From the IMG/VR virus record IMGVR_UViG_3300016725_000004: a DNA stretch of 64,000 nt, one strand, 5' to 3'. A program made the position numbers and the translations under genes. The notes under the pieces are model-generated. The model was not told where the DNA came from. It made no database searches and was given only the letters and a program-made list of their open reading frames with translations. Each line of letters opens with the position of its first letter. Within the stretch, counting starts at the first letter, position 1. This DNA comes from a virus. Below, one piece after another: positions 3,481 to 53,437 of this stretch.

Positions 3481-3495
3481 TCTTCTCCCCTAAGA

Positions 3496-26135: not shown

Positions 26136-26164
26136 AATTTGCTCTCCCTTTTTCTACGTTATCT

Positions 26165-26211
26165 AAATATAAAAAATGGGTAGATAAAACATTACTGTAA
26201 TATCTACCCAT
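26165..26211 (-). terminator. intrinsic terminator of GC-rich two-gene insert
   Basis: 10-bp stem atgggtagat/atctacccat followed on minus strand by TTTTTTATATTT. Confidence 0.55.
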
Positions 26212-26233
26212 TATAAATGGCGGCGGCAGACTG

Positions 26234-26905
26234 CTAGGACTGCGTTTCGTACACAGTCTTGATAAGCAGATGCTTGCCAAACTTGAAGATTTGAGCCGTA
26301 GCCCACAGGCTCTTGAGGGCGCAAATGCGAGTGTACAGGGACTTGAAGATTTCAAGTTCCCGCTCACAGTTGTCAAGATTGCCCTTTTTAGGGCACAGCA
26401 GCTTGAAGGAATCGTTCAGGGCGTTAAAGGCTTCGAGGTAATCGGAGGTTTCTTCTTCGTCCAAACATTCAAAAGCCTCGTCTTCGTCCGGAACTTCACT
26501 GCCGGTAGATTCCGCTTCCTGCTGCACTTCAACGATACGCTGGGCGATTGCCTCGGTATTCAGCATGTAGCTGTTTACCAAGCCTTCGAGGGCTTGTATG
26601 CGGTCTTCATCGACCAGAAAAACTTCGCCAAAGTTTGCTTGCGTGGCGTCATCCTCTGATTCTTCATCAGAAGGATGCACGATAAGGATGACTTCCACAG
26701 AGGATGCAGTTGGCAAAATGTTGCCAGTATCCAGGGCGGCGCAGATAACGCCACGAATGGCATTCTGCATGGGGTCAGAGACGTCGAGTTCTTTCAACGT
26801 AAGCTGGTCAGAGTCATCGGAAGATTCGGCGTCATCTTCGGAACCATCAAGTTCCTGACCGTCAACTTCCTGACCTTCTTCCTCAATTTCACGTTCATTT
26901 TTCAT
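26234..26905 (-). CDS. highly acidic protein (223 aa) in GC-rich insert
   Basis: AAGGAG RBS; D/E-rich throughout (EEEGQEVDGQELDGSEDDAESSDDSD...); GC-rich codons. Confidence 0.55.
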   Translation of the reverse strand: MKNEREIEEEGQEVDGQELDGSEDDAESSDDSDQLTLKELDVSDPMQNAIRGVICAALDTGNILPTASSVEVILIVHPSDEESEDDATQANFGEVFLVDEDRIQALEGLVNSYMLNTEAIAQRIVEVQQEAESTGSEVPDEDEAFECLDEEETSDYLEAFNALNDSFKLLCPKKGNLDNCERELEIFKSLYTRICALKSLWATAQIFKFGKHLLIKTVYETQS

Positions 26906-26928
26906 GATGGCTCCTTGAGTTTCAAGTT

Positions 26929-26951
26929 GGAGGGGGCAGTTAACCCCCTCC
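26929..26951 (-). promoter_or_regulatory. GC hairpin between the two insert genes
   Basis: ggaggggg-cagttaa-ccccctcc; no U-run, so probably an RNA stability/processing element rather than a terminator. Confidence 0.3.
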
Positions 26952-26986
26952 TATATAGGTGGCGCGGAGGTGACTAGTGGTTGGGA

Positions 26987-27769
26987 TTAATCCCAATCGT
27001 CTTCGTCATCATCCTTGCTGCCCTTCTTGCCTTTGCCCTTGCCCTTGGCAGCCTTGCCGCCCTTGGCAGACTTGCCGCCCTTCTTGCCCTTCTTGGGCTT
27101 TTCTTCTTCGTCATCGTCATCATCGGCGTCCCCGTCATCGTCATCGTCCTCGGAGTCGCCGTCATCATCATCGTCATCGTCCCCGTCATCGTCATCGGAG
27201 TCGCCGTCATCGTCATCGCCGTCATCATCATCGGAGTCGCTGTCATCGTCATCGTCATCGGCGTCCTCGTCCTCGTCCTCGTCTTCGTCCTTCTTCTTCT
27301 TGGCGGCCTTGGCGGGCTTCTTCTTGGCCTTCTTGGAGCCACCGTCCTCGTCTGCGTCTTCGCCGCTCAGTACAGCAGCGTCTTCAGCGACCAGGAACAC
27401 AGCACCGTCTTCATTGGTGACGGCAACAAAGCCGGGCACAGGGCTTTCGGTCAGTTCGCCGGAGTCGTCAGTAATGCTGACAACGCGGGCCCGCGTGGTG
27501 ATAGTCACTTCGTTGCCCTCTTCGTAGCCACCTTCGGCGAAAACGGTGAGCAGGCCGTCATAGGGGAAAAGTTCCACGGTGGAAAGCTGCTTGCGCGGCT
27601 TGCGGTAGGAAATGAGAAGGCCGTTGTCGAGGATTTCCTTGATAGTGCCGGAAATGGTCTGGGGGACAGAAGCTTCGGCTTCAAGCGTATAGGTCTGCAC
27701 AGCAGCCTTCTTGGAAGCCTTCTTGTTGTCCTTCTTACCGCCCTTCTTGGAAGCTTTAACTTTAGCCAT
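26987..27769 (-). CDS. Lys-rich / poly-Asp low-complexity protein (260 aa)
   Basis: ATG at 27769 with AAGGAG RBS; KVKASKKGGKKDNKKASKK N-terminus, globular core, KKAKKKPAKAAKKKK, then about 70-residue Asp tract and KGKGKGKK tail. Confidence 0.55.
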   Translation of the reverse strand: MAKVKASKKGGKKDNKKASKKAAVQTYTLEAEASVPQTISGTIKEILDNGLLISYRKPRKQLSTVELFPYDGLLTVFAEGGYEEGNEVTITTRARVVSITDDSGELTESPVPGFVAVTNEDGAVFLVAEDAAVLSGEDADEDGGSKKAKKKPAKAAKKKKDEDEDEDEDADDDDDDSDSDDDDGDDDDGDSDDDDGDDDDDDDGDSEDDDDDGDADDDDDEEEKPKKGKKGGKSAKGGKAAKGKGKGKKGSKDDDEDDWD

Positions 27770-27904
27770 GATGGAACTCCTTTTCGCCGTATTGGCGTAA
27801 TATGTTGTTTGAGAGCAAAAACATCTTTGGCTCTCGTTCAAGTTCCAACTAATAAGTTGGACATTGTGGTGAACCAATGACAAGTAAATTTAAACTGTGT
27901 TTGC

Positions 27905-27933
27905 ATTATATGCTAAACCAAGTTAAATGTCAA
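27905..27933 (-). promoter_or_regulatory. consensus sigma70 promoter (TTGACA-N17-TATAAT) driving GC-rich insert
   Basis: minus-strand -35 at 27928-27933, -10 at 27905-27910. Confidence 0.55.
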
Positions 27934-28069
27934 GAACTTTTTTCCCGAATTTTTAACTTTTTTGGAACTCCCACGTTTTCAATTGTGGCGGGCGGGCACA
28001 CAAATTTGAAAGTTTCCTCGGTATTTGCTTGCGCAAAGTGGTAAACTTACAACCTGCGTTCCAAAAAAG

Positions 28070-28240
28070 TTAATCAATTACGTTCTGACACTTAAACTCA
28101 AAGCGCAATGCTGTTTTAAATGACTTCAATGTCTTCGACATGCCCATACGTTTTCTGGACTTTTTACATTTGCAATGTTTTTTGTCCATCTTGTCGTAGT
28201 TCACGTCACTAAGTTTGTGAATACCAACATAGGGTTTCAT
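28070..28240 (-). CDS. small basic protein (about 56 aa)
   Basis: MKPYVGIHKL...CKCKKSRKRMGMSK; AAGGAAAAAAC RBS; hairpin just upstream. Confidence 0.35.
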   Translation of the reverse strand: MKPYVGIHKLSDVNYDKMDKKHCKCKKSRKRMGMSKTLKSFKTALRFEFKCQNVID

Positions 28241-28439
28241 GTTTTTTCCTTGGTTGAGGTTTAACTCAACCAACTTCAAACTTGAGCATTTCGACCTCCT
28301 ATGTTTGAAGGTGTAGCACCCAATAAGTAATGAGTGCAGTAAATACAACATTGTGTGACAAACTATATATCACAACTGCCACAAGAGCAATTGATATTTT
28401 ATCTTTCATTTTATCCTCCAACTTAGAGGATTTGGTTAT

Positions 28440-28838
28440 TTACAAATCATCATCGTCATCATCGTCATCTTCAGTATAACCAAAAATGTCTTTTTCATAG
28501 TTGTGAATACCTTCTGAAGATTCTAAAATCTTCGGAGTAGGAAATTCAGGCATAGCATCACCAAGCGCAATGTCACAACAAATGACAGGGTTGACCTTCC
28601 AGCTATGCTGAATCAGCGCAGCTTTTACTTCACTGAGAGTAGCCGGAGTGAGGTCACAGGAATGAATATTGAATGTGCAGTTTTGTTCCGGACTATACAC
28701 TGTGGTTTCACCACTGCCATGCATTCTGATAACTTGAACGACACACTCTTTATCAAAAGCTTCTTCAACACTAGAAACGTAAGATACTTCGCCATTGGTA
28801 GAATCATCATACACTGTAACCAAGCTGCCAACTTTCAT
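28440..28838 (-). CDS. family E protein with poly-Asp C-terminal tail (132 aa)
   Basis: MKVGSLVTVYDD...EDDDDDDDDL; paralog of 36712-37212. Confidence 0.55.
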   Translation of the reverse strand: MKVGSLVTVYDDSTNGEVSYVSSVEEAFDKECVVQVIRMHGSGETTVYSPEQNCTFNIHSCDLTPATLSEVKAALIQHSWKVNPVICCDIALGDAMPEFPTPKILESSEGIHNYEKDIFGYTEDDDDDDDDL

Positions 28839-28864
28839 ATCTGACTCCTTGTATTTCTTATACG

Positions 28865-29200
28865 TTATATTTGATAACCAACTTTCGGAGGGCTATCATG
28901 TTTATATGCAATTCGCATCAAGTCTATAGTAGCCCAATTCAAAACTCTTTTCAACAAGTCAGCGTGTTCGGGAATGAATCCTTCATTTGCTGAGATAGTC
29001 TGAAAAATTTCAGCCACTTTCCAATGGTGGGCCAAACCATAATATAAGCAAACTTGCTTGTCTTCAATTGCAGGAAAATGCCGCGAACGAACAAGCATCA
29101 AGTATGAATGATCCGGACACACAGTAACAGAATAAGTGTGTCCTTGTGAAAGGTTAAGCTTATCAACAACTACACCCTGCTGATTGATTAGCACTTCCAT
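28865..29200 (-). CDS. family D small protein (111 aa)
   Basis: MEVLINQQGVVVDKLN... shares N-terminal pattern with 37226-37522 and 33821-34189 products. Confidence 0.5.
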   Translation of the reverse strand: MEVLINQQGVVVDKLNLSQGHTYSVTVCPDHSYLMLVRSRHFPAIEDKQVCLYYGLAHHWKVAEIFQTISANEGFIPEHADLLKRVLNWATIDLMRIAYKHDSPPKVGYQI

Positions 29201-29227
29201 TCAGAAATCCTTTTAATCACCAAAACT

Positions 29228-29256
29228 AGTATAACACTTTGGTGTGAGTTTGTCAA
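29228..29256 (-). promoter_or_regulatory. sigma70 promoter (TTGACA-N17-TGtTATACT extended -10)
   Basis: -35 at 29251-29256, -10 at 29228-29233. Confidence 0.5.
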
Positions 29257-29286
29257 GAACTAAATTGACTTGTTTTTGGCTTACTT

Positions 29287-29790
29287 TTAGTACCCCTGAA
29301 TAATCTTTTCGATTTTATGAAGCTTTCGTTTCAGTTCTTTAACTTCGGCTTCCTTAGCGGCAAGCTTGTGCCTGAGCTTGAGGAAGTCTTCACTGTCAAC
29401 TTCAAAGTACAACACTTCCGCAAGTTTCTTTTGCGTCAAAGTCCGAACGGGTTTAATATCAGTAATCATTGCAGTAAAACAACCAGATTGGTAAAAAGAT
29501 ACGTCAATCATCGGATCTGCCAAAGATCGGCAAGTAACTTTCCACCCATCAGGGTAAACATCATTCGGCCCGTGCCCTGTACCACCACCTTCTAAGTTTG
29601 CTTTATATACAACAAACTCACCAAGAAGGTGGCTGAAATTTTCTTCATCTATGGTTACTGCATGTTCAGTCAATTTACTACTGAATTTTCGGTTGGCATA
29701 AACTAGCCGCTCCTCAATCCAAGCATAAACTTCATATCCGGGTTTAAGTTCAATAATATCCCCAACTTTCAAATAATTTTTCTTAGACAT
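29287..29790 (-). CDS. hypothetical protein with C-terminal coiled coil (167 aa)
   Basis: start MSKKNYLKVGD with AAGGAGAAGG RBS. Confidence 0.5.
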   Translation of the reverse strand: MSKKNYLKVGDIIELKPGYEVYAWIEERLVYANRKFSSKLTEHAVTIDEENFSHLLGEFVVYKANLEGGGTGHGPNDVYPDGWKVTCRSLADPMIDVSFYQSGCFTAMITDIKPVRTLTQKKLAEVLYFEVDSEDFLKLRHKLAAKEAEVKELKRKLHKIEKIIQGY

Positions 29791-29800
29791 GACCTTCTCC

Positions 29801-29980
29801 TTAAAAGTTAGGTTCAACAATCGCTTTGCAAAAGGCGGTCACATCCTGCTGGTCTTCCTTGGAAAAGGAAGAGTCAGCCAACACTGTTGAAATAGCATCA
29901 TCAATGGATGATGTAGGATTGTTTGCCAAGTATTCAGTTACGTCCGTTGCCACAGCAAGAGCATCAATGTCGCGTATCAT
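29801..29980 (-). CDS. small acidic protein (59 aa, not in track)
   Basis: MIRDIDALAVATDVTEYLANNPTSSIDDAI...; AAGGAAA RBS. Confidence 0.4.
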   Translation of the reverse strand: MIRDIDALAVATDVTEYLANNPTSSIDDAISTVLADSSFSKEDQQDVTAFCKAIVEPNF

Positions 29981-29995
29981 AGTAGTTTCCTTATT

Positions 29996-30769
29996 TTACA
30001 TAGATTCAACAACTTTTTGCAGTTTTTCAACTGCATCAATAAAAGATTGTTTATCATTTTTTGACAATTTATTTCTTGTTTTGTGTATCTTACCTGAAAT
30101 TGACATTTTCAAATCTACAGTAAGAATATTTAATTTTTCTAAAAACTTAGCAATTGTAAGATTTTTACAGGCATTATCTTCACAGATTTTATCTGAATTT
30201 AATTCATTACACAGATCTGCATACATACGCTTTTGCATAATTTCATCTTTATCATTCCTAGCAATTTTCAACAAACGTTCCCGTGTCATTTCTGGTTTAT
30301 TTCTGGCATCATCAAGAATGTCTTGAGGAAGTTTATTAATCTTTAAAATTTCACTCACGGTACTCTTTGATTTGTGAAGTAATCTTGCAAGTGCATCATT
30401 AGAACATTGCTTTTGTTCTTTAAGAAACAAAAGTGATTCTGATAATTCAACTGCTGTTAAATCAGAACGCAAACAATTTTCAATTAAAGCCAAAGATAGT
30501 GCATAACCACCAATAAATGTAGCAGAAACAGTTACTCTCTTCAAGAGATTAAGGGCATGGACAAGACGTTCACCAGAAAGAAGAACGAGACGTTTATTAC
30601 AATAAGTAAAAACAATACTTTTATGTAAATCTTCATCTTTAATATTTTTAGCAAGTGCTATAACTTCATCCTCAGTGAAATATTCACTTGAATGTTTTTT
30701 GCTGGAAAGCAAATCTTTAATATTAAGTAAATATTCTTTACCATTCTCAAATTCAATTGTATTTTTCAT
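29996..30769 (-). CDS. ParB-like DNA-binding/nuclease-domain protein (257 aa)
   Basis: VLLSGERLVHAL and LIENCLRSDLTAVELSESL resemble ParB box (GERR..A / EN..R.DL...E). Confidence 0.45.
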   Translation of the reverse strand: MKNTIEFENGKEYLLNIKDLLSSKKHSSEYFTEDEVIALAKNIKDEDLHKSIVFTYCNKRLVLLSGERLVHALNLLKRVTVSATFIGGYALSLALIENCLRSDLTAVELSESLLFLKEQKQCSNDALARLLHKSKSTVSEILKINKLPQDILDDARNKPEMTRERLLKIARNDKDEIMQKRMYADLCNELNSDKICEDNACKNLTIAKFLEKLNILTVDLKMSISGKIHKTRNKLSKNDKQSFIDAVEKLQKVVESM

Positions 30770-30791
30770 GCGTCCTCCAATTATAAATGAT

Positions 30792-30814
30792 GGGAAGGTA
30801 ATAATTACCTTCCC
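30792..30814. terminator. stem-loop between 420-aa gene and ParB-like gene
   Basis: gggaaggtaat-a-attaccttccc palindrome; weak T-tract. Confidence 0.3.
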
Positions 30815-30829
30815 ATATATAGTGGTCAG

Positions 30830-32092
30830 TTAGTCGAGGCGACCACGAAGCTGACTGATAGCAGACAGGCAAGCATTCCGGTCAGCCTCATGCTGCATAT
30901 TGCAGCCAAACCCGAAAATCAAGTTCATGTCGTCAAACTTGGTTTGGGTAAGAAGGGCATACAGAGGCTTTTCTACCTCCGTAAGCTTTACGGGGGAGGT
31001 TGCACCTTCATGAGCAAGCAGAGCGGTTTCAACCGTATTCAGCACTTCCTTTATGTGCTCAGACTGCTGCTGATTTTTCATGTTGCCTTGGACGCCGAAA
31101 AACATGGCGGCAGCGTTGGGATCCTGCTGCAAAGTACGGCTGTGAAGCAGAGCCTTGAAGGTTGCTTCAAATTCAGGGTCAGGCATTTCCTGCGTCATGC
31201 AGTTGCCGCCGCATGCACAAGTATGCGGCTTGTCCACAGATATAGGTGAAGGAATGGCAGGAACATCTTCGGCAGCAGTTGCCATGCGAACATACTGCCC
31301 GAAGTTGACCAAGTGTTCGCAGTCAATAACTGCGACATCCTTGTAGGAACGGGCCAGCATGGCTTCTGTAAGCCGGGCGCGGGGCGTCTGCTTGACGATT
31401 ATGCCCACGCAGTATTGCGGCGCAGGAAGTTTGTCACCAAGCTGCTTCAACAAGCAGCAAACCGCGTTAATGTCCTGGCTGTTGAATGGGGCCAGCATGC
31501 GCGGCTCAATCAAAAGCGTGACTTCGCGCAAATTGACATTTTCGCCCTTCAAGGACTTGGCGGTGAAGTCGCCGGACTGAATGCGGGCGGTGAGTTCAGA
31601 AGTAATGGGAGATTCAACGATAAGAGTTTTGCATTCGATGGTTTTCATGGTTTTGCCTTTTGGTGGAGTTTTGGGTTTAAGTTCATCAGGAAGATGAACG
31701 CCTTCTGCTTCCAATTCTTCCTGAGCCTTGATAATGTTGGTCAAGATTTTTTCCAAGGTGGAAAAATCTTTCACTGCGTACCTGCGGGAAAACTTTTTGC
31801 GCATTTTGTTAGTAAGTTTTCCCACAGTGGCCCTTTCCAAAATAAAGCCCACTGAAAATTCAAGTTGATAGACCGGTGAAGAATCCTCAAGAAGAAAGGA
31901 ACCCGAAATGCCGGGTTCAGGAAAAAGCGGTGAAGAGCCAAAAATACTTTCACCGACCAGCAAGTTTACCGTGTGGGAATTTGGAAACAATTCAGTCAAT
32001 TTTTCAAGGGAAGTGTTTGCTTGAACTTGTTTCAAGTTGACCGGATTGCTATCCAAGGGATTGAGTACAAAGACGCGGCATGCAATTTTCAT
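30830..32092 (-). CDS. hypothetical protein (420 aa), GC about 50%
   Basis: long ORF with GC-rich codon usage unlike AT-rich regions. Confidence 0.55.
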   Translation of the reverse strand: MKIACRVFVLNPLDSNPVNLKQVQANTSLEKLTELFPNSHTVNLLVGESIFGSSPLFPEPGISGSFLLEDSSPVYQLEFSVGFILERATVGKLTNKMRKKFSRRYAVKDFSTLEKILTNIIKAQEELEAEGVHLPDELKPKTPPKGKTMKTIECKTLIVESPITSELTARIQSGDFTAKSLKGENVNLREVTLLIEPRMLAPFNSQDINAVCCLLKQLGDKLPAPQYCVGIIVKQTPRARLTEAMLARSYKDVAVIDCEHLVNFGQYVRMATAAEDVPAIPSPISVDKPHTCACGGNCMTQEMPDPEFEATFKALLHSRTLQQDPNAAAMFFGVQGNMKNQQQSEHIKEVLNTVETALLAHEGATSPVKLTEVEKPLYALLTQTKFDDMNLIFGFGCNMQHEADRNACLSAISQLRGRLD

Positions 32093-32102
32093 CAGTTTCT
32101 CC

Positions 32103-32423
32103 TTAAATATTTTTCCAATCTTGGTAATATTTTTTCATTTTAACATACGAATTTCGTATGATAGATATATTGAATTTCCAAAAGATAATAGTAAGAATAA
32201 GAGAAAGAGCAGCAGAGATTCTGAGAATGTAAATATACATAATTGGAATGGTAAGTATTTTCATATGTGAATTTAAATTGCTATACAAATGAGCCATGAT
32301 AGCAGGTGCAAGCCAAGGGACGAAAGACAAAATGAAAAAGACAGTATAACACACAAGCAGTCCAAGTTCGCAGTAAAAATACTCAAAACGAATTTTCTTC
32401 ATCTCATGGTCATATGCGTTCAT
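32103..32423 (-). CDS. small membrane protein (start at internal Met)
   Basis: MNAYDHEMKK... with GGGGGAATT RBS, downstream of promoter; upstream part of track ORF overlaps promoter. Confidence 0.4.
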   Translation of the reverse strand: MNAYDHEMKKIRFEYFYCELGLLVCYTVFFILSFVPWLAPAIMAHLYSNLNSHMKILTIPIMYIYILRISAALSLILTIIFWKFNISIIRNSYVKMKKYYQDWKNI

Positions 32424-32449
32424 AATTCCCCCTTTCAAAGCATGGTATA

Positions 32450-32478
32450 TTATACCATGCTTTGAAAAGAAAGTCAAT
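32450..32478 (-). promoter_or_regulatory. consensus sigma70 promoter within 35-bp palindrome
   Basis: TTGACT-N17-TgGTATAAT; palindrome tttcaaagcatggtatattataccatgctttgaaa (32434-32468). Confidence 0.55.
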
Positions 32479-32490
32479 GGGTCAAAACAA

Positions 32491-33024
32491 CTAAATTTTG
32501 TCAAATTTGACTTCAACGAGAATGGCTCGAAGAAAATCATCACTGCCATCAGTTATTTGTGTAAGTCTAACCTTCCTACCATTAAGTTCAACAATGGGAT
32601 GATTACCTGCCCCACCACTCCACGGATGCTTACCACATATCTTTACAAAGTATTTGTTCAAAAGTGAAACACAACGAGCAAACTGCAAATGCTTTTTTGC
32701 AAACTTTTCAAACTTGTGATAGCGAGAAACCTTCTCCGCATTTGTTTCGTAATGCAAATCCTGAAACTGAAAACAAATGGTAGCTTCACCCCTGCTGGGA
32801 GCAAATTCACAAAGTGTAGTTTTGACTTTGACATTTTCCGAAGATGTCACATCCTTCAAAAGATGAAACATTGCGCCAGAGATAATCTCCGAAATGGAGT
32901 TGGAATAAGTAACAAGGTCTTCAAGCTGTTTCACACGCTGTTCTGCCCGAAGCCGAATGTTAGCAGAGCGGCGTTCGATACCTAATTCCTTAACCACAAC
33001 TTTTTTCAATGTATTAGCTTTCAT
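32491..33024 (-). CDS. hypothetical protein (177 aa)
   Basis: AAAGGGGTAATTT RBS; follows promoter. Confidence 0.5.
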   Translation of the reverse strand: MKANTLKKVVVKELGIERRSANIRLRAEQRVKQLEDLVTYSNSISEIISGAMFHLLKDVTSSENVKVKTTLCEFAPSRGEATICFQFQDLHYETNAEKVSRYHKFEKFAKKHLQFARCVSLLNKYFVKICGKHPWSGGAGNHPIVELNGRKVRLTQITDGSDDFLRAILVEVKFDKI

Positions 33025-33052
33025 AAATTACCCCTTTTTCAAAGTATGGTAT

Positions 33053-33081
33053 ATTATACCATACTTTGAAAAGAATGTCAA
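33053..33081 (-). promoter_or_regulatory. consensus sigma70 promoter within 35-bp palindrome
   Basis: TTGACA-N17-TgGTATAAT; palindrome tttcaaagtatggtatattataccatactttgaaa (33037-33071). Confidence 0.55.
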
Positions 33082-33093
33082 GAGGCTGAAAAA

Positions 33094-33306
33094 CTACGAA
33101 ATAAGCGGTTCAGCGGCGATTTCAAAAAGGTAGGTTCCTTCTTTGTCAAGTTGAAACGTACCATTTTGCTTGTTCACCCAAAGTTTGGGAAAACGGGTGC
33201 GTAGCTCTTTTTCAGCCGCAGCTTTACTTGCGGCCACAAAGAGAAATTCAGCTACGCCAAATGGTTTGAACTTGGTCACAACAAAAACTTCTTTGTTAGT
33301 GTTCAT
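33094..33306 (-). CDS. hypothetical protein (70 aa)
   Basis: minus-strand ORF. Confidence 0.4.
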   Translation of the reverse strand: MNTNKEVFVVTKFKPFGVAEFLFVAASKAAAEKELRTRFPKLWVNKQNGTFQLDKEGTYLFEIAAEPLIS

Positions 33307-33808
33307 GCTTATCCTCCAAAATGTTTAAGGTGAAATTAGGTTGTTTATCTCTCGCAGGTGTACGAGAGATAGAAACAGTTATAGCCACATCATGTAAAAC
33401 CGTATCATCTTTTGTCATATCCAAAAGATAAGTATTCAATTCATTGAATATTGTTTTAGAGAATGTTCCAAACATATTCACATCACCAGATTCAGTAATA
33501 ATCGAACCTAAGGGTGGCATGATAATCTCATGCCGCTTTTTGTTACATTGCTTCATTATCCAACGCAATGGCCCAATTAGCCATTTTTTATTAATTTCAG
33601 TATCTGAAGGATTTATTGTAAAAGAACACAAATCAAAAATTGCAGAAGGGGAAAGATTTCCTATCTTTCCAGCAAAAGGTATGCCTTCAACATATCCATT
33701 GAAAAGCTCTTCAATCATAAGGTAATTGTCATTAAGCGTGAAACGACAAAAACCTCCATATGTCATGACATGAGAAATAACACCCTGAGGGTTGATTGCA
33801 AATTTCAT
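33296..33808 (-). CDS. hypothetical protein (170 aa), distant family D-like N-terminus
   Basis: MKFAINPQGVISHV... Confidence 0.5.
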   Translation of the reverse strand: MKFAINPQGVISHVMTYGGFCRFTLNDNYLMIEELFNGYVEGIPFAGKIGNLSPSAIFDLCSFTINPSDTEINKKWLIGPLRWIMKQCNKKRHEIIMPPLGSIITESGDVNMFGTFSKTIFNELNTYLLDMTKDDTVLHDVAITVSISRTPARDKQPNFTLNILEDKHEH

Positions 33809-33820
33809 TTTAATCTCCTT

Positions 33821-34189
33821 TTAATCGCGTTTAGAAAAATCTTTCCCAAATTCAGGTGTACGAATTACAACATTATTCAATTGCTGTTCTATAATCCACA
33901 AAACACAATTCAGCAAAGCTTCATTAATTATAGTACGAATCTTTTTGCTGGTTGTATTTTGAGGAATAAGAACAGATTGCTCTTTCAATTTAGAATATGC
34001 ATCTAATAGACCTCCTACTTCATATGAGTTAACTCCTATATCCATAGTGAATATATCATGGCATTCACCACGAATAAATGAGGATATTTCAATAATATTT
34101 TCATGTACTGTTACTTTAAATTTCGGTGCATGATATCCTATCTTATGAGGATTAACTACCACACCTTTAGCAGTAAGGAGAAAGTGCAT
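33821..34189 (-). CDS. family D small protein (122 aa)
   Basis: MHFLLTAKGVVVNPHKIG... Confidence 0.5.
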   Translation of the reverse strand: MHFLLTAKGVVVNPHKIGYHAPKFKVTVHENIIEISSFIRGECHDIFTMDIGVNSYEVGGLLDAYSKLKEQSVLIPQNTTSKKIRTIINEALLNCVLWIIEQQLNNVVIRTPEFGKDFSKRD

Positions 34190-34200
34190 TTTAATTCTCC

Positions 34201-34614
34201 TTATACGAGTTTCACATTAAGGAATTTTTGTATTTCTTCTGGAGTTTGTTCAAAAATATCGTTAATACCTTTTTTCAATGAAACATAAGTTGATTGACGT
34301 AGTTGCTCAAATGCAGGAGCATACTGCAAAGTAAGTAATTTAAGTTCATCATCTGAAACTAATTTATACTTATGACATTCAATTGAATACAAAATATAAT
34401 CTGCAATCCCAAAGTTACCTGAAACAAGAACTCCCCAGATATCATCAAATCTGTACATATGAATGGTAGCATCATTAGAAATGCGCTTCATTTTTATGTA
34501 GGGTGTATCTTTTTCAAGTTCAATTTCACAAAGCCAAGGTAAGGCTGTCATTTCACAAGCGCGTAAAATATCACTAAAAGATGAAATTCCTAATTGCAGA
34601 TTTGGTAAAAACAT
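34201..34614 (-). CDS. hypothetical protein (137 aa)
   Basis: minus-strand ORF. Confidence 0.5.
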   Translation of the reverse strand: MFLPNLQLGISSFSDILRACEMTALPWLCEIELEKDTPYIKMKRISNDATIHMYRFDDIWGVLVSGNFGIADYILYSIECHKYKLVSDDELKLLTLQYAPAFEQLRQSTYVSLKKGINDIFEQTPEEIQKFLNVKLV

Positions 34615-34626
34615 ATACCCTCCTTT

Positions 34627-35070
34627 CTATTTGTAAATGTTAAGCATTAACGATAACAAAAAAGAATCAGGACGCACATTATGTGCATGAATGTAATGTG
34701 TATATCCATCAGGAATAACAAAAGTGTACCCTTTATATTCAGCTTTTATTTCACTACTTCCGTTAAGTTTGCCACAAATACGGCAAATAGAAGAACCCTT
34801 ATAAAAGGATCTGCTACCGGAACAGAGAAGCTTTGAAAATTTCTTTGTAAAAAGCTTCATCTGTTCTTCGGTAAGATTATTGGAATCTTCAACGGGTTTA
34901 TTGAATTTAAACCAATAACCTATTGCAACATTACCACGTTCCGTAATATGTGCAGTCTTCAAAGTATTGCGAATGGATATTCTAAGTTTTTTATGTTCAG
35001 GAAGATTAACTTCTTTCAAAGCTACATATGCATTTTCAAGAAGTTGGTAAGCATCAATATCTATAAACAT
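34627..35070 (-). CDS. hypothetical protein (147 aa)
   Basis: minus-strand ORF. Confidence 0.5.
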   Translation of the reverse strand: MFIDIDAYQLLENAYVALKEVNLPEHKKLRISIRNTLKTAHITERGNVAIGYWFKFNKPVEDSNNLTEEQMKLFTKKFSKLLCSGSRSFYKGSSICRICGKLNGSSEIKAEYKGYTFVIPDGYTHYIHAHNVRPDSFLLSLMLNIYK

Positions 35071-35441
35071 TATGCACCTCCTTTAGCAGCAGCACACATT
35101 TTAGTATAAGTATATATTCTATCACGCTCACCATATTCGAGCATTTGAATCGAATACGGAGCACGTTCTTTCAACTTGGGAGTGAAACGAGATCGTTTCA
35201 AAACACGGCAAATAATACCGGGATAAAATCCCATTACCGGATGGAGCACTAAACACACATTCCCTGCCTTTGGGGGAATCACAGGAAGACCAGCCGCACC
35301 CATAACAACCACGTTGGTAAAGCGGAAGAAGCAATCTTCTGTATGCATCAAAATTGCTTCGGGAGTATCAAGCGCATGGTTAAGGTATGTTTCAGGAATT
35401 TCTTCGACAATTGCCACCGCAGTGCATTCATATATTTCCAT
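35070..35441 (-). CDS. hypothetical protein (123 aa)
   Basis: minus-strand ORF. Confidence 0.5.
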   Translation of the reverse strand: MEIYECTAVAIVEEIPETYLNHALDTPEAILMHTEDCFFRFTNVVVMGAAGLPVIPPKAGNVCLVLHPVMGFYPGIICRVLKRSRFTPKLKERAPYSIQMLEYGERDRIYTYTKMCAAAKGGA

Positions 35442-35488
35442 AACTACTCCTTTCCTACCCAGTAGGTAGGAATTACATTCTGTTCTCC

Positions 35489-35728
35489 TTATTTTGAATA
35501 AATTTTACGGTTATTTGGTGTATTGATAACATACATAGATTCATGTGCCCGCAAAATAACACCACGCCGAGCCAAGCGGTTGAGAATCTTTACAACAAGA
35601 GGGCGGTCTTTTTCTTCATATTCTTCAAGATGAACATGCCAAAAATCGCCCAAGTTTTGGGAAAGAGATTTCCGAAGGCCGGTAAAAATCTCTTTGGAAG
35701 TAAGGCTGCGCTTTTGTTCAGTAGACAT
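35489..35728 (-). CDS. small basic protein, possible winged-helix (79 aa)
   Basis: start MSTEQKRSL with AAAAGGGGAGAA RBS; VVKILNRLARRGVILRAHE. Confidence 0.4.
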   Translation of the reverse strand: MSTEQKRSLTSKEIFTGLRKSLSQNLGDFWHVHLEEYEEKDRPLVVKILNRLARRGVILRAHESMYVINTPNNRKIYSK

Positions 35729-35742
35729 AATGTTCTCCCCTT

Positions 35743-36132
35743 TTATTTGTTTACAAAATACAAAACGAGGAAGACGATTTGAAACGCTGCCAGTCCAAAA
35801 TAAAAGTATGCATCCCACATATAGTCAGCAGAACGTCTGCGAGAATTTTCTATAACTTCATCTAATGCTTTTATATGTTTCTCTTGGATGCTAGTCAACT
35901 TGTCACAGTTTTCAATCACTCGCGGGAGTTTTCTCTGCTTTACCAAATTATCCAAATATTGAAGTCTTTCCAAAACTTTTTCCCGTTCTTCTTTCTCGAA
36001 GAAATGAAATTGAATATCAAGAATGGCCCGTTGGCGGTCGGTAGCAGAGGTATTCAACCATGCAATAAAACCAAGTTGATCTTCCTCTGACATGTTAAAC
36101 ATATCCATCCATTTTGTATTTTCGTACATCAT
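35743..36132 (-). CDS. hypothetical protein with C-terminal TM helix (129 aa)
   Basis: minus-strand ORF. Confidence 0.45.
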   Translation of the reverse strand: MMYENTKWMDMFNMSEEDQLGFIAWLNTSATDRQRAILDIQFHFFEKEEREKVLERLQYLDNLVKQRKLPRVIENCDKLTSIQEKHIKALDEVIENSRRRSADYMWDAYFYFGLAAFQIVFLVLYFVNK

Positions 36133-36316
36133 ACACCTCGAAGTTAGAAAGAGTGCAAAGCTTCTCGCAATGCCCGTTTAATCGGTTGGCCCAATTCATC
36201 CACCAGCAACAGTAAATGTTTTGAATTTTCAACTTTTGGGTTAAAAGAAAAAGTTATAAAATTTTGTGAAATTTCAATATAATCAACTTCCATTTCTTTC
36301 TCTGTATTTTCCACAG

Positions 36317-36586
36317 TTAGTCTCCTTTGATATTTTCAGAAATAAGTAAAAAGTTCAACATACATATAACCTGATGTTGATACTCCCTAGGAAGATTGTA
36401 AAATTGTTCATCTAATATTTGAATTTGGCTAGATGAAAGTTTTCGTAACCACTTCAAAAATTTATTATGATGAAGTATATTCATTTCAATATAATCCATC
36501 CAGTTAAAATTACCAATATGGGTGGATTTATCATAAAAGTTTCCAGTGAAAAGCAAATAGTTAACTTTATCAATTGCACTTTTCAT
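36317..36586 (-). CDS. hypothetical protein (89 aa)
   Basis: minus-strand ORF. Confidence 0.4.
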   Translation of the reverse strand: MKSAIDKVNYLLFTGNFYDKSTHIGNFNWMDYIEMNILHHNKFLKWLRKLSSSQIQILDEQFYNLPREYQHQVICMLNFLLISENIKGD

Positions 36587-36711
36587 ATTTACTCCTAAAT
36601 TAATAATTTACTTTCATTAAGAATTTTTATTTCTCCCCTACCAGTATCACGGTTAAATTCTTCTGACAAAGCTGTCAGTTGTTTGATTTGTGCCTCTGTC
36701 ATATATCCTCC

Positions 36712-37212
36712 TTATTTGCAAAGGTAACAAATACCAATAAAGATAAGTGCAACTACAGTGAATGAACCAAGCAAAACTCCAAGAAACTTGGCGATACTTA
36801 CATTAGGAGTATTATCCTCATCTTCATCATCCTCGTCATCATCGTCATCTTCACTGATAGGACGAATTTGAAGGTTAATTTGTTTGCGTTCCTCCGAAGA
36901 AAGTAAAACGGCTTGAGGTATAACCGGAAGTTCATCGGTTCCTTTAAGTTCAAATGAAATAACGGGTTCAATATACCACTTGTATTTCTCCAAACTCTCT
37001 TGAACTTCATCAAGTGAACAAAGTTCAAGTTCGCCAGCATACACGTTAAAAGCGGTATTAAGATGAGGGCAAAAGACAGTTATCTCATTTCCACGAATGG
37101 CGATAACTTGCAAAATATAATCTCCCTCGAACGCAGTAATGACGTGAGGCACATACATTTCATAGCCTTCGTCATCAATATCAGATATAGTAACCAAGCT
37201 ACCAAGTTTCAT
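36712..37212 (-). CDS. family E protein with poly-Asp tract and C-terminal TM anchor (166 aa)
   Basis: MKLGSLVTISDIDD...EDDDDDEDDEDEDN...FTVVALIFIGICYLCK. Confidence 0.55.
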   Translation of the reverse strand: MKLGSLVTISDIDDEGYEMYVPHVITAFEGDYILQVIAIRGNEITVFCPHLNTAFNVYAGELELCSLDEVQESLEKYKWYIEPVISFELKGTDELPVIPQAVLLSSEERKQINLQIRPISEDDDDDEDDEDEDNTPNVSIAKFLGVLLGSFTVVALIFIGICYLCK

Positions 37213-37225
37213 AACAACTCCCTAC

Positions 37226-37522
37226 TTAATATTTGTCCATGAATTTTATTATGGTGGTAAACAACTTAATTTCTTTTGGAGTCATACCCTCCAAAGCATC
37301 CTTATTATTTACCTCCTCAAGAATTTTCTCTAATGAGGTTGTGCGAAAATTTCCTGTCCAAAGAACAGCAGGTTCTTCAATATCAGGACGAAGAACCCTC
37401 GGATGAAAATAATTACGAGTAATCGTAAGTATCTCTCCCTCAACTTCAACTTCAAACGTAATGCCAACATATTTATTGACCTGGTCTACCACAGCACCAG
37501 CATGATTTACGAAAAATTTCAT
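37226..37522 (-). CDS. family D small protein (98 aa)
   Basis: MKFFVNHAGAVVDQVNKYVG... Confidence 0.5.
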   Translation of the reverse strand: MKFFVNHAGAVVDQVNKYVGITFEVEVEGEILTITRNYFHPRVLRPDIEEPAVLWTGNFRTTSLEKILEEVNNKDALEGMTPKEIKLFTTIIKFMDKY

Positions 37523-37573
37523 CTACCCTTCTCCTTTTCAATGGCGATAGCTGCCAGTTTTCGGCTATGGTAT

Positions 37574-37602
37574 ATTATACCATAAATAGCCGTTGGTGTC
37601 AA
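37574..37602 (-). promoter_or_regulatory. consensus sigma70 promoter (TTGACA-N17-TgGTATAAT)
   Basis: -35 at 37597-37602, -10 at 37574-37579; core palindrome ctatggtatattataccatag. Confidence 0.55.
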
Positions 37603-38064
37603 CTAGGCCAAATTAATGGCGTGGTACGGCAGTTTGTGCGGCTTGCTTGCTTTTAGCAATTCCACATATCCCAAGTTGAACAAGTCGCCGTTGCGCAACT
37701 TGCTAAAATAAAATTCAGCGTAATCTTTTGTCGTAAAACTGGTTCGATTATCATTTTCAGGGTTAATCAAATCCGTATACAACACGCGCCAACTAATTTG
37801 GCCGGGCGAAGAACTATCACAATATATATTAAAAATTCTTATTAGGAATGTTATCTCTCCACACTCAAAGGTTGGAGGTACTTCAAATAATACTGCATAA
37901 ACTTCTCGGTCAGTAAACTCATAATATTCACAGTCAGTGACACCCAACTTTATAAAGTTCACACAAGTTTTATTTCGTATCGGATCTGTTTGTTGTGTAG
38001 ATTTAATAAAATCTGCAAAGTTTGCAAATTTTGAAAAATCATGGTGAGCGAATTTTATTTGCAT
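37603..38064 (-). CDS. hypothetical protein (153 aa)
   Basis: minus-strand ORF. Confidence 0.5.
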   Translation of the reverse strand: MQIKFAHHDFSKFANFADFIKSTQQTDPIRNKTCVNFIKLGVTDCEYYEFTDREVYAVLFEVPPTFECGEITFLIRIFNIYCDSSSPGQISWRVLYTDLINPENDNRTSFTTKDYAEFYFSKLRNGDLFNLGYVELLKASKPHKLPYHAINLA

Positions 38065-38073
38065 AATGACTCC

Positions 38074-38336
38074 TCAATATAATTGACGAAACGTAGTTGA
38101 AGCTTCAACTCTGTCAAATAAAGTTGTGCCTTTATCATTAAAGACAAAATCAATTTTTAGAGTTTGCACATTAACTTTCAATATTTGATATGTACCTGTC
38201 ATGTATTCATGAAGGATTACTGCATAACTATTCTCCGCAAGATTTTTTATTCCAACACAGGATTCAGTAAGCAATCCACTACTTTTAGCTACAATATTCT
38301 CTTTAAACTTTTCCTGAATTTCCTCAAATTTCATTG
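38074..38336 (-). CDS. small protein (87 aa) overlapping stop of HTH gene
   Basis: MKFEEIQEKFKEN...; the 207-aa track ORF upstream of this Met is out-of-frame overlap with HTH gene. Confidence 0.35.
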
Positions 38337-38824
38337 AGGAAATCCTTTGCGGAACAACCAAAAATACCACCAAGCAGCTTTGCTTTGTTTCTTGGAATGT
38401 TACGCTGACCAAGTTCATATTGGCTGATATGTGATTGCGGCACACCGAGATCCTGTGCGAGTTCTTTTTGCGTGAGATTTGCATTCCTACGCAATTCTCG
38501 CAAAATGTCACACGGATACTTTGCGCTTTTAGGTTTAACAATTTTCCAAGTTTTGGGATTAGGAAAAGAATACATGCTAATATCCAATTGTCCCAAACAA
38601 ATAGTTTCAGAGGTACAATCTTTTCTTTCCACCTCCAAAACCAGCGCAAAACCAATTTCACCTTTAGGATTACAGATAGTAATAATACTATCTGCATCTA
38701 CTACAAAAAATGATCTTACAGTAATTTGGTCTGAAATTTTAACCATATCAAGGTCAGTACCTTGATAAATGGCAAAGTTACGAATGTTGGGTTTTTTCAA
38801 AGGAAGGCAAGTCAGAGTATACAT
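38324..38824 (-). CDS. XRE-family HTH protein with unknown N-terminal domain (166 aa)
   Basis: C-terminal LRELRRNANLTQKELAQDLGVPQSHISQYELGQRNIP (Cro/C1-type helix-turn-helix). Confidence 0.55.
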   Translation of the reverse strand: MYTLTCLPLKKPNIRNFAIYQGTDLDMVKISDQITVRSFFVVDADSIITICNPKGEIGFALVLEVERKDCTSETICLGQLDISMYSFPNPKTWKIVKPKSAKYPCDILRELRRNANLTQKELAQDLGVPQSHISQYELGQRNIPRNKAKLLGGIFGCSAKDFLNEI

Positions 38825-38833
38825 TTCGTTCTC

Positions 38834-39646
38834 CTAAGCAAGACGAATATAATCAGTAAGTTGATCCACATAGCCAGTAAGCTGAATAAAGGATTCAGCA
38901 CTGCCGCCCAAATCAGGATGGTGAATCTTTGACAAAGCACGGTATTGCGATTTGATTTGCTCCAAAGTAAGTTCTTCAATTGAGTCAAGCAAACCAAGAA
39001 ATTCAGCAGCTTCAATAACCTTACGCGGAAATCCACGCAATTTGGACTGCGCATTCATTTCCTCAACTTGCTCTTTTGTGTAATCCGAAAGAACAACATC
39101 CTGTTCAATGTTGAAACAAACTTTAATACCTTCTTTCAGAAAAGCATAAAAACTGCGGTAGTGCCAATCACTAGCACGATAATATCCTGCACCACCACAA
39201 TAATAGGAACCACTTTTATTTTCATAGTTTGAAAAATGTTGTGGCTTCACAACACTGCCGGGTCGATATTTATTCTTTAAGTCTTCTGTAGCTTTTGAAG
39301 CTGCCATAGCCTTTGTTGCAGTTGCCATTGAAATGGCTTCGGCTTCAAAGGCAGAAGCCCTATAATAATCATCATCCTTCCTCCAGTAAATGCGGTAGGA
39401 AGGCATGAGAATGCGGGCATAGAAATACTTTGCCAAGTTCTGGTGAGCTTGGTCATCAAGCTCAATTCGCCGGGCAATATTCTTAATCTTTTCAAAGATT
39501 TCTTTTGCGCCGTTACGAAAACGGATGGTGGTCATCTTACCTTCGTGAAGTTTCAAGTAATCACGAAAGTCTTCTGCCAAGTCTTCAACAATGTTGAGCA
39601 AGTTGAAATTTCCGAGATACTTCTTTTCATAAGCCTTGGGTTTCAT
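38834..39646 (-). CDS. J-domain (DnaJ-like) protein (270 aa)
   Basis: C-terminal QIKSQYRALSKIHHPDLGGSAESF (HPD tripeptide, J-domain helix II/III). Confidence 0.6.
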   Translation of the reverse strand: MKPKAYEKKYLGNFNLLNIVEDLAEDFRDYLKLHEGKMTTIRFRNGAKEIFEKIKNIARRIELDDQAHQNLAKYFYARILMPSYRIYWRKDDDYYRASAFEAEAISMATATKAMAASKATEDLKNKYRPGSVVKPQHFSNYENKSGSYYCGGAGYYRASDWHYRSFYAFLKEGIKVCFNIEQDVVLSDYTKEQVEEMNAQSKLRGFPRKVIEAAEFLGLLDSIEELTLEQIKSQYRALSKIHHPDLGGSAESFIQLTGYVDQLTDYIRLA

Positions 39647-39671
39647 TTATAACTCCTTTTTGGTATGGTAT

Positions 39672-39700
39672 ATTATATCATAATATATGGTAATTGTCAA
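39672..39700 (-). promoter_or_regulatory. consensus sigma70 promoter (TTGACA-N17-TATAAT)
   Basis: -35 at 39695-39700, -10 at 39672-39677; tggtatattatatca core. Confidence 0.55.
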
Positions 39701-39762
39701 GTATCTGACACATACGAAAAATGGCTGAAAACCAGCCATTTACGCCAATTTTCAGCCATTAA

Positions 39763-39969
39763 TTAAATGGGATTTGAGATACTATTCAATCGTTGAAGTA
39801 TGTCTGCTTGGCAGTTATCATGCAAATGAATAATAACACGACCATACCTATGAGAACCATCAGCTTCATCTGTACGTTCCATAAAGGTAAAGGTGTTAGT
39901 ATTATCTGGAATGATAACTTGTTTGCATTTATCGCAAATATAAACCGTATCTAATTTCACTATTTCCAT
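39763..39969 (-). CDS. small Cys-containing protein (68 aa)
   Basis: CDKCKQ...HDNCQ; minus-strand ORF. Confidence 0.4.
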   Translation of the reverse strand: MEIVKLDTVYICDKCKQVIIPDNTNTFTFMERTDEADGSHRYGRVIIHLHDNCQADILQRLNSISNPI

Positions 39970-40235
39970 TATTCAACCAATTCACAAATCTTAAATTTAA
40001 GTTTAAATTCTGCGAGCATTTTTCCTTCAAATTTAAGAAATTGCACAATACCAATTTCATAGTTCACATATACACATTCAATAACTGTACCCGCCTTAAA
40101 TTTTCCAATATCTTTACGAAGCTCTACATTTTCATATTGAATAGAAAAATCTTCTGCGGTATCAAACTCAGAAAACTTTACAAAATATTGGTACAGCGGG
40201 TCTTTTTTCTTAAACTTGGTAGTTTTCGTTTTCAT
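39969..40235 (-). CDS. hypothetical protein (88 aa)
   Basis: minus-strand ORF. Confidence 0.4.
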   Translation of the reverse strand: MKTKTTKFKKKDPLYQYFVKFSEFDTAEDFSIQYENVELRKDIGKFKAGTVIECVYVNYEIGIVQFLKFEGKMLAEFKLKFKICELVE

Positions 40236-40259
40236 ATGTTCTCCTTTTTTCTTATTATA

Positions 40260-53361: not shown

Positions 53362-53437
53362 TGGTGGGCCTGTCCAGATTCGAACTGGAAGTCCAAGACT
53401 TAGAAGGTCTTTGCATTATCCGTTATGCTACAGGCCC
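53362..53437 (-). tRNA. tRNA-Arg (anticodon UCU)
   Basis: 76-nt cloverleaf GGGCCTG-TA-GCAT-AACGGATA-ATGC-A-AAGAC-CTTCTAA-GTCTT-GGACT-TCCAG-TTCGAAT-CTGGA-CAGGCCC-A-CCA; all four stems perfectly paired, U33, TTCGAAT T-loop, encoded CCA. Confidence 0.85.

Follow-up and report, generated by a model that had tools for sequence, protein, structure and literature searches.

Two lineage-specific gene families, D and E, in a variable, promoter-rich region of an uncultivated phage

We analyzed a 64-kb stretch of viral DNA (64,000 nucleotides (nt); IMG/VR virus record IMGVR_UViG_3300016725_000004), referred to here in its full length as the window. It is a single long series of small minus-strand genes with a guanine-plus-cytosine (GC) content of approximately 26%. 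Within this backbone lies an island of higher GC (36–60%) at approximately 26–40 kb (positions 26000-40300), which encodes members of two families of small proteins that we call D and E. An earlier note, made from the sequence alone, had described this region as repeated two-gene cassettes, each consisting of a strong promoter, a family D gene, and a family E gene with a poly-Asp tail, and had viewed them as typical of rapidly evolving host-takeover or anti-defence loci. The six open reading frames (ORFs) and the two promoters that it listed are indeed present at these minus-strand positions, the promoters as TTGACA-N17-TATACT and TTGACA-N17-TATAAT with a TGn extension (Table 1). Our analysis identifies D and E as two previously undescribed, lineage-specific multigene families in a hyperplastic, promoter-studded region of early type; the locus is not a dedicated two-gene module.

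The kinship of the two family E proteins of the window was borne out, as E1 and E2 share 36.7% identity over 109 amino acids (aa; E = 4.6e-20). A HMMER search with a profile of the E domain against 1.84 billion representatives returned only eight credible clusters at 50% identity; P0013 (1184 aa, repetitive, high GC), which also came out of the E search, was discarded as a false positive. Relatives of the locus were found via family E and by profile search, on approximately ten related contigs that are mostly short. Contigs are given below by their L numbers and proteins from other contigs by four-digit P numbers. The C-terminal transmembrane (TM) anchor that had been proposed for E2 was confirmed, and a TM helix is likewise found at the C-terminus, with one to five residues beyond it, in P0009, which is an E2-like fragment, and in the distant members P0010, P0011, P0012, and P0014 (161–185 aa), the KD19 values of these helices and that of E2 ranging from 1.9 to 2.9. 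These proteins have this single hydrophobic helix and no N-terminal signal sequence. E1 and P0008 are without a TM anchor. A long acidic tract is present in E1, E2, P0008, and P0009 only, and the distant members P0010–P0014 show a short mixed acidic/aromatic stretch. Because the anchor is kept in the distant members and the acidic tract is not, the conserved architecture of family E is a domain, a linker, and a tail anchor. The poly-Asp tract, which the earlier note had taken for a possible DNA mimic, is mainly a variable linker between the barrel described below and the membrane anchor; it is long only in the clade of these four proteins and varies between strains.

AlphaFold2 modeling of the E2 domain from a nine-sequence alignment gave a small beta-barrel with flanking helices (predicted local distance difference test score, pLDDT, 86.2; predicted template modeling score, pTM, 0.80), whereas the model of E1 from a two-sequence alignment was not usable (pLDDT 46). 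A fold-level match of the E domain to the SH3-like/KOW/Tudor small beta-barrels was obtained, from which the E domain differs by extra helices and an extended segment of approximately 40 residues. The Asp run lies outside the confident fold and is predicted to be disordered, pLDDT falling below 50 where the tract begins. According to the model, the E domain would be a generic SH3-like barrel, with no functional relative identified. At the sequence level, only one of ten E members matches a KOW family (KOW6_SPT5, E = 0.019, below threshold), and we know of no KOW or Tudor protein with an acidic linker plus a tail anchor. Searches of Pfam, PHROGs, and PADLOC gave nothing for the D and E proteins of the window and only scattered single matches when the whole families were scanned, and profile searches of D and E against PDB sequences gave nothing below E = 0.5. 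The net charge is -20 for E1 (in 132 aa), -23 for E2, and -20 for P0008, of which the domain alone accounts for -11 to -14 (-11 in E1), with an isoelectric point (pI) of about 4.3–4.5; only 7% of the window ORFs lie below pI 4.5. The positively charged YTRKRA before the TM helix in P0012 and P0014 suggests an N-in topology for family E.

Three independent events have parted the E domain from its anchor, in E1, in L018/L019, and in L008. E1 ends with a TAA stop, and ten codons further on, in the same frame, starts a 36-aa hydrophobic ORF with its own GGAGG ribosome-binding site; this ORF encodes ...KISIALVAVVIYSLSHNVVFTALITYWVL..., the counterpart of the E2 anchor ...NVSIAKFLGVLLGSFTVVALIFIGICYLCK. 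In L018/L019, which stem from two separate samples, a GAA>TAA change in the first E paralogue falls exactly on the residue before the helix and leaves the 18 anchor codons intact, while L022 and L023 retain Glu at this position. In L008, which is from a 97.7%-identical strain, a +1 insertion truncates E2 upstream of the acidic tract. Recoding of TAA was considered and rejected, as TAA ends many ordinary genes here. Despite these losses, the barrel domain appears to be under purifying selection (the ratio of nonsynonymous to synonymous substitution rates, dN/dS, is 0.15 for E2). Since the anchor was lost three times, the domain bears this signature of selection, and P0008 is also without an anchor, the E domain can apparently work off the membrane. 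The anchor losses may reflect a relaxed need for the anchor, adaptive toggling, or readthrough, and such recurrent and precise removal gives a lead on how effectors of this kind diversify.

For family D, pairwise comparison was of little help. BLASTP gave no alignment at all among D1, D2, and D3, anchored N-terminal scoring picked out D1–D2 alone (rank 6 of 8001 pairs), and ungapped scores past residue 13 were at background level. The N-terminal signature M-x-[FVLI]-x-[ILV]-[NT]-x-x-G-x-[VI]-[VIS] occurs exactly four times in the six frames of the window, always at a start codon. A hidden Markov model (HMM) of family D was built externally, from eleven D-like proteins of other contigs and zero window sequences. 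Among 309 six-frame window ORFs, it ranked D4 (1e-12), D1 (2e-6), D2 (6e-4), and D3 (1.7e-3) on top, the fifth-ranked ORF scoring only 0.24. As some of the relatives had been picked by the motif, the first 13 model columns and the first 12 target residues were deleted in a second test; D4 (1e-9) and D1 (3e-4) were still significant, D3 came third (0.1), and D2 was lost. The third rank of D3 is due to a shared C-terminal motif, W-x(8-12)-P-[PE]-x-G, to which W-x-P-E-F-G of D3 was aligned. Because the external HMM finds D4 and D1 even after removal of the N-terminal motif, family D is a real domain of approximately 100 residues, of which D2 is a shortened member. The grouping made in the earlier note therefore stands in part: the external HMM supports a family of four, but BLASTP aligns none of D1, D2, and D3, and D2 is not recovered without its N-terminus. 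The similarity past the first ten residues, likewise, holds for E1 and E2 and, with the motif removed, for D4 and D1, but not for D2. The gene that had been described as a different partner of D3 turned out to be D4, itself a family D member.

Family D is predicted to be a soluble alpha/beta domain of approximately 100 aa. Its pattern consists of an N-terminal M-x-F-F-V-N-x-x-G-x-V-V, two beta-strand motifs, and a C-terminal W...P-P/E-x-G. There are four copies in the window (D1–D4) and three to five in the relatives, some with long C-terminal extensions. A database of 5.8 billion clusters contained only 16 clusters of family D, every one of them from this phage lineage and without a Pfam domain. 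A T4-style capsid-targeting or leader peptide was considered for the conserved N-terminus and rejected, as the conservation spans approximately 100 aa and as the module is internal in one paralogue, behind a K-rich leader. We also observed that D1 and D4 share 72% DNA identity over 47 nt (29172-29218 versus 33780-33826), more than in the rest of the genes; the match takes in the ribosome-binding site (GATTAAAAGGA) together with the first nine codons and could be a module for recombination or translation initiation.

Strong promoters on the coding strand were found at 40282, 39700, 37602, 33081, 32477, 29256, and 27933. The window has seven perfect promoter matches, where chance would give 0.09; every one is on the coding strand, and 6/7 lie within 27.9–40.3 kb. 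The two promoters attributed to the cassettes, P37602 and P29256, match the consensus at 11–12 of 12 positions and carry TGn in addition. P37602 leads approximately 13 genes (D2, E2, and eleven more, including D3 and D4) up to the next strong promoter, P33081, and neither a strong promoter nor a convincing terminator was found in between. P29256 leads four genes before P27933, namely D1, E1, the 36-aa hydrophobic TM ORF, and a 56-aa K-rich ORF. Downstream of E1 and of E2, no convincing terminator was seen, and the D and E genes have good ribosome-binding sites. With transcription units of approximately 13 and four genes, there are no two-gene cassettes here, and the adjacency of D and E that would define them is not conserved in the relatives, as detailed below. 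What the earlier note had said of paralogous, diversified small genes behind strong sigma70-type promoters is, however, supported.

Some of these promoters coincide with stem-loops. In addition to the folding z values given in Table 1, those of P39700, P40282, and the P0008 promoter in L013 are +1.0, -1.5, and -4.7, respectively. P33081 and P32477 form a direct repeat of 50–62 nt that brackets one 177-aa gene (32491-33024). Four of the strong promoters have a common palindrome, ATGGTATA-A-TATACCAT, centred on the -10 element (also given as ATGGTATAATATACCAT); it may serve the Xre-type protein encoded nearby as an operator, instead of or besides forming a hairpin. In L013 (160-700 and 1095-1140), each small gene was seen to have its own TTGACA-N17(..ctgtga)-TATAAT promoter with a G+C-rich hairpin. 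The promoter at approximately 496-524 of this contig is followed by approximately 110 nt without an ORF until the next promoter and may drive a small RNA.

The relatives show several arrangements of these genes. In L022, the order is D(201), an acidic-tail protein, D(335), a 63-aa protein, E, E, a 182-aa protein, D(122), a 148-aa protein, and a D3-like protein. L018 has the same order minus the 63-aa gene, so that a 330-aa D-family protein comes immediately before the first E. In L020, an acidic-tail protein is followed by E-E, with nothing at the position that E1 has in the window, and L017 has E-E-D-D, in which D comes after E. The E genes of the relatives are mostly in tandem E-E pairs, and only in L018 does a D gene directly precede E; elsewhere, this place is taken by another E or by a 63-aa, a 76-aa, or an acidic-tail protein. 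In L013, a lone E (P0008) with its own hairpin promoter lies between a 76-aa gene and a K-rich/acidic pair, which is the position of E1 in the window. This contig has no D-family gene in its 7.1 kb, the 76-aa gene directly upstream of P0008 being non-D. In L025/L026, which belong to a 131-kb contig, there are three D genes and zero E. In L012, a strain of the window's phage, the stretch that begins with the D1 start codon and ends shortly before P27933 is absent while P29256 is kept, and in L009, a 70%-identical D1 (P0007) is followed by a start-less E1 remnant of approximately 20 codons and then by a different palindromic promoter, this relative having lost E1. D and E thus occupy a common variable region, yet they have been gained and lost independently, as shown by D without E in L025/L026, the absence of the unit from L012, and D1 with only a remnant of E1 in L009; they are not an obligate pair, and the relatives do not show the two families always present or absent together, as the cassettes would imply.

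Table 1 Features of the D/E region and of related sequences (positions are those of the window unless a contig is named)
Feature	Position	Strand	Description
E1	28440..28838	-	132 aa; soluble member: predicted beta-barrel domain plus EDDDDDDDDL tail; ends with TAA
E2	36712..37212	-	166 aa; predicted SH3/KOW-like beta-barrel (residues 1 to approximately 118), acidic linker, C-terminal TM anchor
E2 acidic linker EDDDDDEDDEDED	36814..36852	-	GAT/GAC/GAA repeats; length differs between strains (9-nt deletion in L008)
E2 transmembrane helix FLGVLLGSFTVVALIFIGI	36730..36786	-	KD19 2.57; residues 143-161; 5 residues after the helix
36-aa hydrophobic ORF (MKDKISIALVAVVIYSLSHNVVFTALITYWVLHLQT)	28299..28409	-	KD19 2.01; called as a gene in JGI contigs
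D1	28865..29200	-	111 aa; full-length family D member
D2	37226..37522	-	98 aa; shortened member, recognizable by its N-terminal half only; without the C-terminal W...PPxG
D3	33821..34189	-	122 aa; family D member; 42% identity over 55 aa to L022:8555-9076
D4	33296..33808	-	170 aa; family D member in tandem with D3; 35% identity to L018:4903-5562
P37602	37574..37602	-	TTGACA-N17-TATAAT, TGn extended -10; -10 inside a stem-loop (ggctat..tatggTATAATataccatagcc); fold z = -3.9
P29256	29228..29256	-	TTGACA-N17-TATACT, TGn extended -10; only a weak 8-bp palindrome; fold z = +1.0
P33081	33025..33085	-	Perfect palindrome with 18-nt arms centred on -10; direct repeat of P32477; fold z = -6.7
P32477	32421..32481	-	Repeat copy of P33081 with a compensatory change in both stem arms; fold z = -7.2
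P27933	27905..27933	-	Downstream edge of the D1-E1 indel; leads the gene of the K-rich/poly-acidic 260-aa protein
Shared-palindrome sites	39663-39708; 37565-37610; 33044-33089; 32440-32485; partly 54298-54326
Xre-type helix-turn-helix (HTH) protein	38324-38824		Pfam HTH_3, E = 1.7e-12
147-aa protein	34627..35070	-	Best-conserved gene of the block, approximately 50% identity in relatives; weak Pfam DUF7919 match
56-aa K/R-rich ORF	28070..28240	-	Last gene of the P29256 unit; kept in L009; called as a gene in L003
tRNA-Arg(TCT)	53362-53437	-	Sole tRNA of the window
Third acidic-tail family members	L018 139-543; L020 1487-1963; L022 4168-4563; L025 10608-11000

Apart from D and E, the genes recognized in the window were nrdD, an adenylosuccinate-synthetase-like gene, a RlaP-like gene, and one tRNA-Arg, and nearly all remaining window genes have no Pfam or PHROG family. 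The window contains no T4 core gene; the phage is not recognizably of the T4 type, and its backbone is made almost entirely of ORFans. A megablast search with the island and with the initial 20 kb found zero matches among 50,697 phage records, and scanning for patterns in IMG/VR (twice), in JGI metagenome contigs, and in GTDB genomes brought up no relatives. An identical sequence is present in four metagenome assemblies, on contigs of up to 233 kb. Given this contig size and the lack of a DNA-level match to known phage genomes, the source is an uncultivated jumbo phage or phage-like element. The island genes have detectable relatives only on phage contigs of approximately 50–53% GC (L013–L026). 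As the island is itself higher in GC than its backbone, this suggests that the island module has been exchanged among phage lineages that differ strongly in base composition, and partial amelioration may have taken place. The 147-aa gene marks the synteny E ... 147 aa ... D3 ... D4.

The mode of evolution of the locus is not the one that had been supposed. The dN/dS values of D1 (0.13), D2 (0.27, from two changes only), D4 (0.23), and E2 (0.15), together with those of neighboring genes (0.11–0.25), point to purifying selection with no sign of diversifying selection, and the description of the locus as rapidly evolving has to be given up in favor of turnover by gene gain, loss, and swap. The 177-aa gene between P33081 and P32477 has a dS of 1.18 relative to its counterpart in L012 (1324-1863), while the flanking genes have dS values of 0.18 or less; this indicates that the whole cassette has been swapped between strains. 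A 257-aa ParB-like gene (PHROG ParB-like, E = 1e-10; window 29996-30789) is replaced in L012 (3563-4013) by two small ORFs of 65 and 57 aa, the replacement beginning directly after a conserved terminator-like hairpin (window 30790-30816). L009 (1-130) opens with 79 nt that match window 29746-29824 at 100% identity, after which come an internal deletion of approximately 300 nt in a 177-aa phrog_7702 gene and then 73–79% identity, forming a sharp mosaic junction. Variation at this locus arises through gain, loss, and swap of cassettes at promoter/stem-loop elements and not through fast substitution.

A similar organization has been described in T4-type phages by Arbiol et al. 2010 (PMC2839356) and Comeau et al. 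2014 (PMC4122927). The promoter-early stem-loop elements (PeSLs) of these phages combine a strong sigma70 promoter with a stem-loop that often covers the -10 element; they lie upstream of ORFans in hyperplastic regions and act as recombination points (PMC2839356, PMC4122927). The locus studied here shares with them strong consensus sigma70 promoters directly upstream of ORFans, copies of which are gathered in a variable region (6/7 perfect promoters within 27.9–40.3 kb), and indels or replacements that end at the elements, such as the L012 deletion between P29256 and P27933, the hairpin promoter in place of E1 in L009, and the swap of the 177-aa gene. A stem-loop on the promoter occurs at P37602, P33081, P32477, and the P0008 promoter in L013, but not at P29256, P39700, or P40282. 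There are differences as well: the phage is not recognizably T4-type, the hairpins are AT-rich palindromes centred on -10 whereas PeSLs have polyG/polyC stems, and the palindrome shared by four promoters could be an operator. Judging by these features, shuffling at this locus appears to match the PeSL concept, and modular shuffling by promoter/stem-loop elements, described for T4-type phages, would extend to an unrelated lineage of uncultivated jumbo phages.

We regard the structural and evolutionary statements of our preferred reading as likely to be correct and hold its functional part with much less confidence. According to this reading, the D and E genes would be transcribed early from consensus extended -10 sigma70 promoters, and the promoter elements with stem-loops would be the sites at which segments are inserted, deleted, and exchanged between strains. 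Family E would hold an acidic protein-binding barrel (a domain of approximately 115 aa with its helices) at the inner membrane face, and soluble forms of the E1 type would arise repeatedly when the anchor is cut off, leaving the barrel free in the cytoplasm. The barrel may bind or sequester a host or phage factor, with the poly-Asp tract as a flexible, membrane-repelled spacer, and the D proteins would be independent soluble effectors of the shared variable region rather than obligate partners of E.

Several points weigh against this reading. The N-in topology depends on the flanking charges of two distant members, and the flanks of E2 itself (-12 upstream, +1 downstream) would, taken alone, favor the opposite orientation. 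Neither family has a sequence match in Pfam, PHROGs, PADLOC, or PDB, and the fold match of E is a generic one. In the window, each of the two E genes comes immediately after a D gene (p = 0.015 for a random order of the 29 island genes), and the 330-aa D-family protein of L018 is also directly upstream of E. The D-then-E adjacency within the window is probably not due to chance; it may stem from an old segmental duplication or a loose functional link, and these two observations leave room for either. It should be noted that the comparison covers only the ten or so contigs described above, most of them short, and that promoter activity, timing, and hairpin function are deduced from sequence alone. 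P29256 itself has no significant hairpin, and the use of sigma70-type promoters is an assumption.

The D-before-E order, seen twice in the window and once in L018, is the strongest argument for D and E being a duplicated two-component host-takeover or anti-defence module, in which the polyanionic tail of E would act as a DNA mimic and block a host DNA-binding defence or nucleoid protein. The short spacers between the genes (13 and 26 nt) are consistent with co-translation, and the genes lie in an accessory region of early type. The pairing is not conserved, however, as E occurs in E-E tandems or behind non-D genes, D occurs without E, and D1 occurs next to a decayed E1; furthermore, the dN/dS values (0.11–0.27) carry no signature of an arms race. 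The mimic part keeps some standing, as the acidic folded domain of the soluble E forms may act in this way and these forms are as acidic as known mimics: E1, E2, and P0008 have net charges of -20 to -23, and in Ocr of phage T7, 34 of the 116 aa are acidic and 6 basic (PMC3439906). E1, with its -20 in 132 aa, resembles Ocr as a small, very acidic phage protein behind a strong early promoter. Across family E, however, it is the TM anchor that is conserved and not the acidic tract, the ancestral architecture is membrane-anchored, and no more than a few residues separate the tract of E2 from the membrane. The Asp run is also predicted to be a disordered linker or tail and not a structured array of charges, whereas characterized mimics such as Ocr carry theirs on a folded surface (PMC3439906). 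Ocr is a helical dimer and the E domain a predicted SH3/KOW-like barrel with no sequence or fold similarity to it or to any other known mimic, and PADLOC gave no match. We consider the module with its DNA mimic distinctly unlikely, and the presence of an Asp tract by itself predicts DNA mimicry poorly. The view of the region as a host-takeover or anti-defence locus is retained insofar as this is an accessory, highly plastic region of early type, the usual setting of such genes, but not for a D+E unit; what should be screened is each gene singly, or a promoter-bounded segment, rather than a D+E pair.

The C-terminal TM helix conserved in most family E members also fits early membrane proteins with a role at the envelope, which could exclude superinfecting phages, control when lysis occurs, or inhibit a membrane-bound host machine (the divisome or a transporter, for instance); the anchor would then target the barrel as the effector, and the D proteins would be unrelated neighbors. 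The known phage exclusion and division-inhibitor proteins are small single-pass membrane proteins that are expressed early. The promoter-led organization of accessory genes recalls morons, and the presence/absence polymorphism is typical of non-essential fitness genes. We nevertheless think such a role unlikely, given that the anchor was lost three times with the domain still under apparent purifying selection, that P0008 is without an anchor, and that no similarity to known exclusion, holin/antiholin, or division-inhibitor families was found. A more elaborate proposal starts from the stops that fall precisely between domain and anchor in E1 and L018/L019, with the anchor codons intact and in frame. 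Family E would then be a new class of effectors in two switchable forms, a tail-anchored and a free acidic SH3-like protein, both isoforms being made by low-level readthrough or by separate translation of the anchor. The acidic barrel and the Asp tract would keep a DNA-binding or defence protein of the host sequestered, be it at the membrane or in the cytoplasm, with the D proteins as co-evolving specificity partners; we regard this as very doubtful. At the other extreme, family D could be a chance N-terminal motif, with the similarities trivial and the ORFs decaying or non-functional filler, as the BLASTP result for D1, D2, and D3, the background-level scores past residue 13, and the nonsense and frameshift lesions in E genes might suggest. 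This explanation deserves next to no credence and is largely refuted by the external HMM tests, in which exactly four D ORFs were picked from 309 and D4 and D1 even without the motif, and by the dN/dS values of 0.11–0.27; the good ribosome-binding sites and consensus promoters of the genes also speak against it, as do homologues that have stayed 35–70% identical in phages whose GC contents differ widely.

The preferred reading of D and E as lineage-specific families of an early-type region has parallels in the SPO1 host-takeover module and the T4 early ORFans, which are examples of paralogous ORFan families in early regions. The likeness lies in many small same-strand genes, repeated strong promoters of the host type, paralogous families, and a variable, non-essential content, but the D and E genes have no homology to any of the genes of these phages. 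Two families without an entry in Pfam, PHROGs, PADLOC, or PDB are hereby defined, and family E is given a confident predicted fold and an architecture.

A third recurrent family in the relatives consists of proteins of 130–158 aa that start with MTK(S/T)SF(I/L)VTCQDNPN and have long Asp/Glu-rich C-terminal tails. This family is found in L018, L020, L022, and L025; acidic tails are a general habit of the phage lineage and not specific to family E. In the window, a 260-aa protein (26987-27769, minus strand) has a K-rich N-terminus, a beta-rich middle, and a K-rich C-terminus, the latter preceded by a very long Asp/Gly/Ser/Glu tract (GAT/GAC repeats, local GC 60%). Counterparts with this type of architecture were seen in L013, L020, and L025, each after a K-rich small protein; homology of the 260-aa protein to its L013 counterpart could not be proved by BLASTP, as the composition correction removed the score. 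Other paralogues of the window, all on the minus strand, are a tandem triple of approximately 160-aa proteins at 2486-3975 (31–37% identity, E down to 1e-23), a tandem pair at 20835/21344 (20835-21811; E = 3e-6), and a weak pair at 35743/36317 (35743-36586; E = 6e-4).

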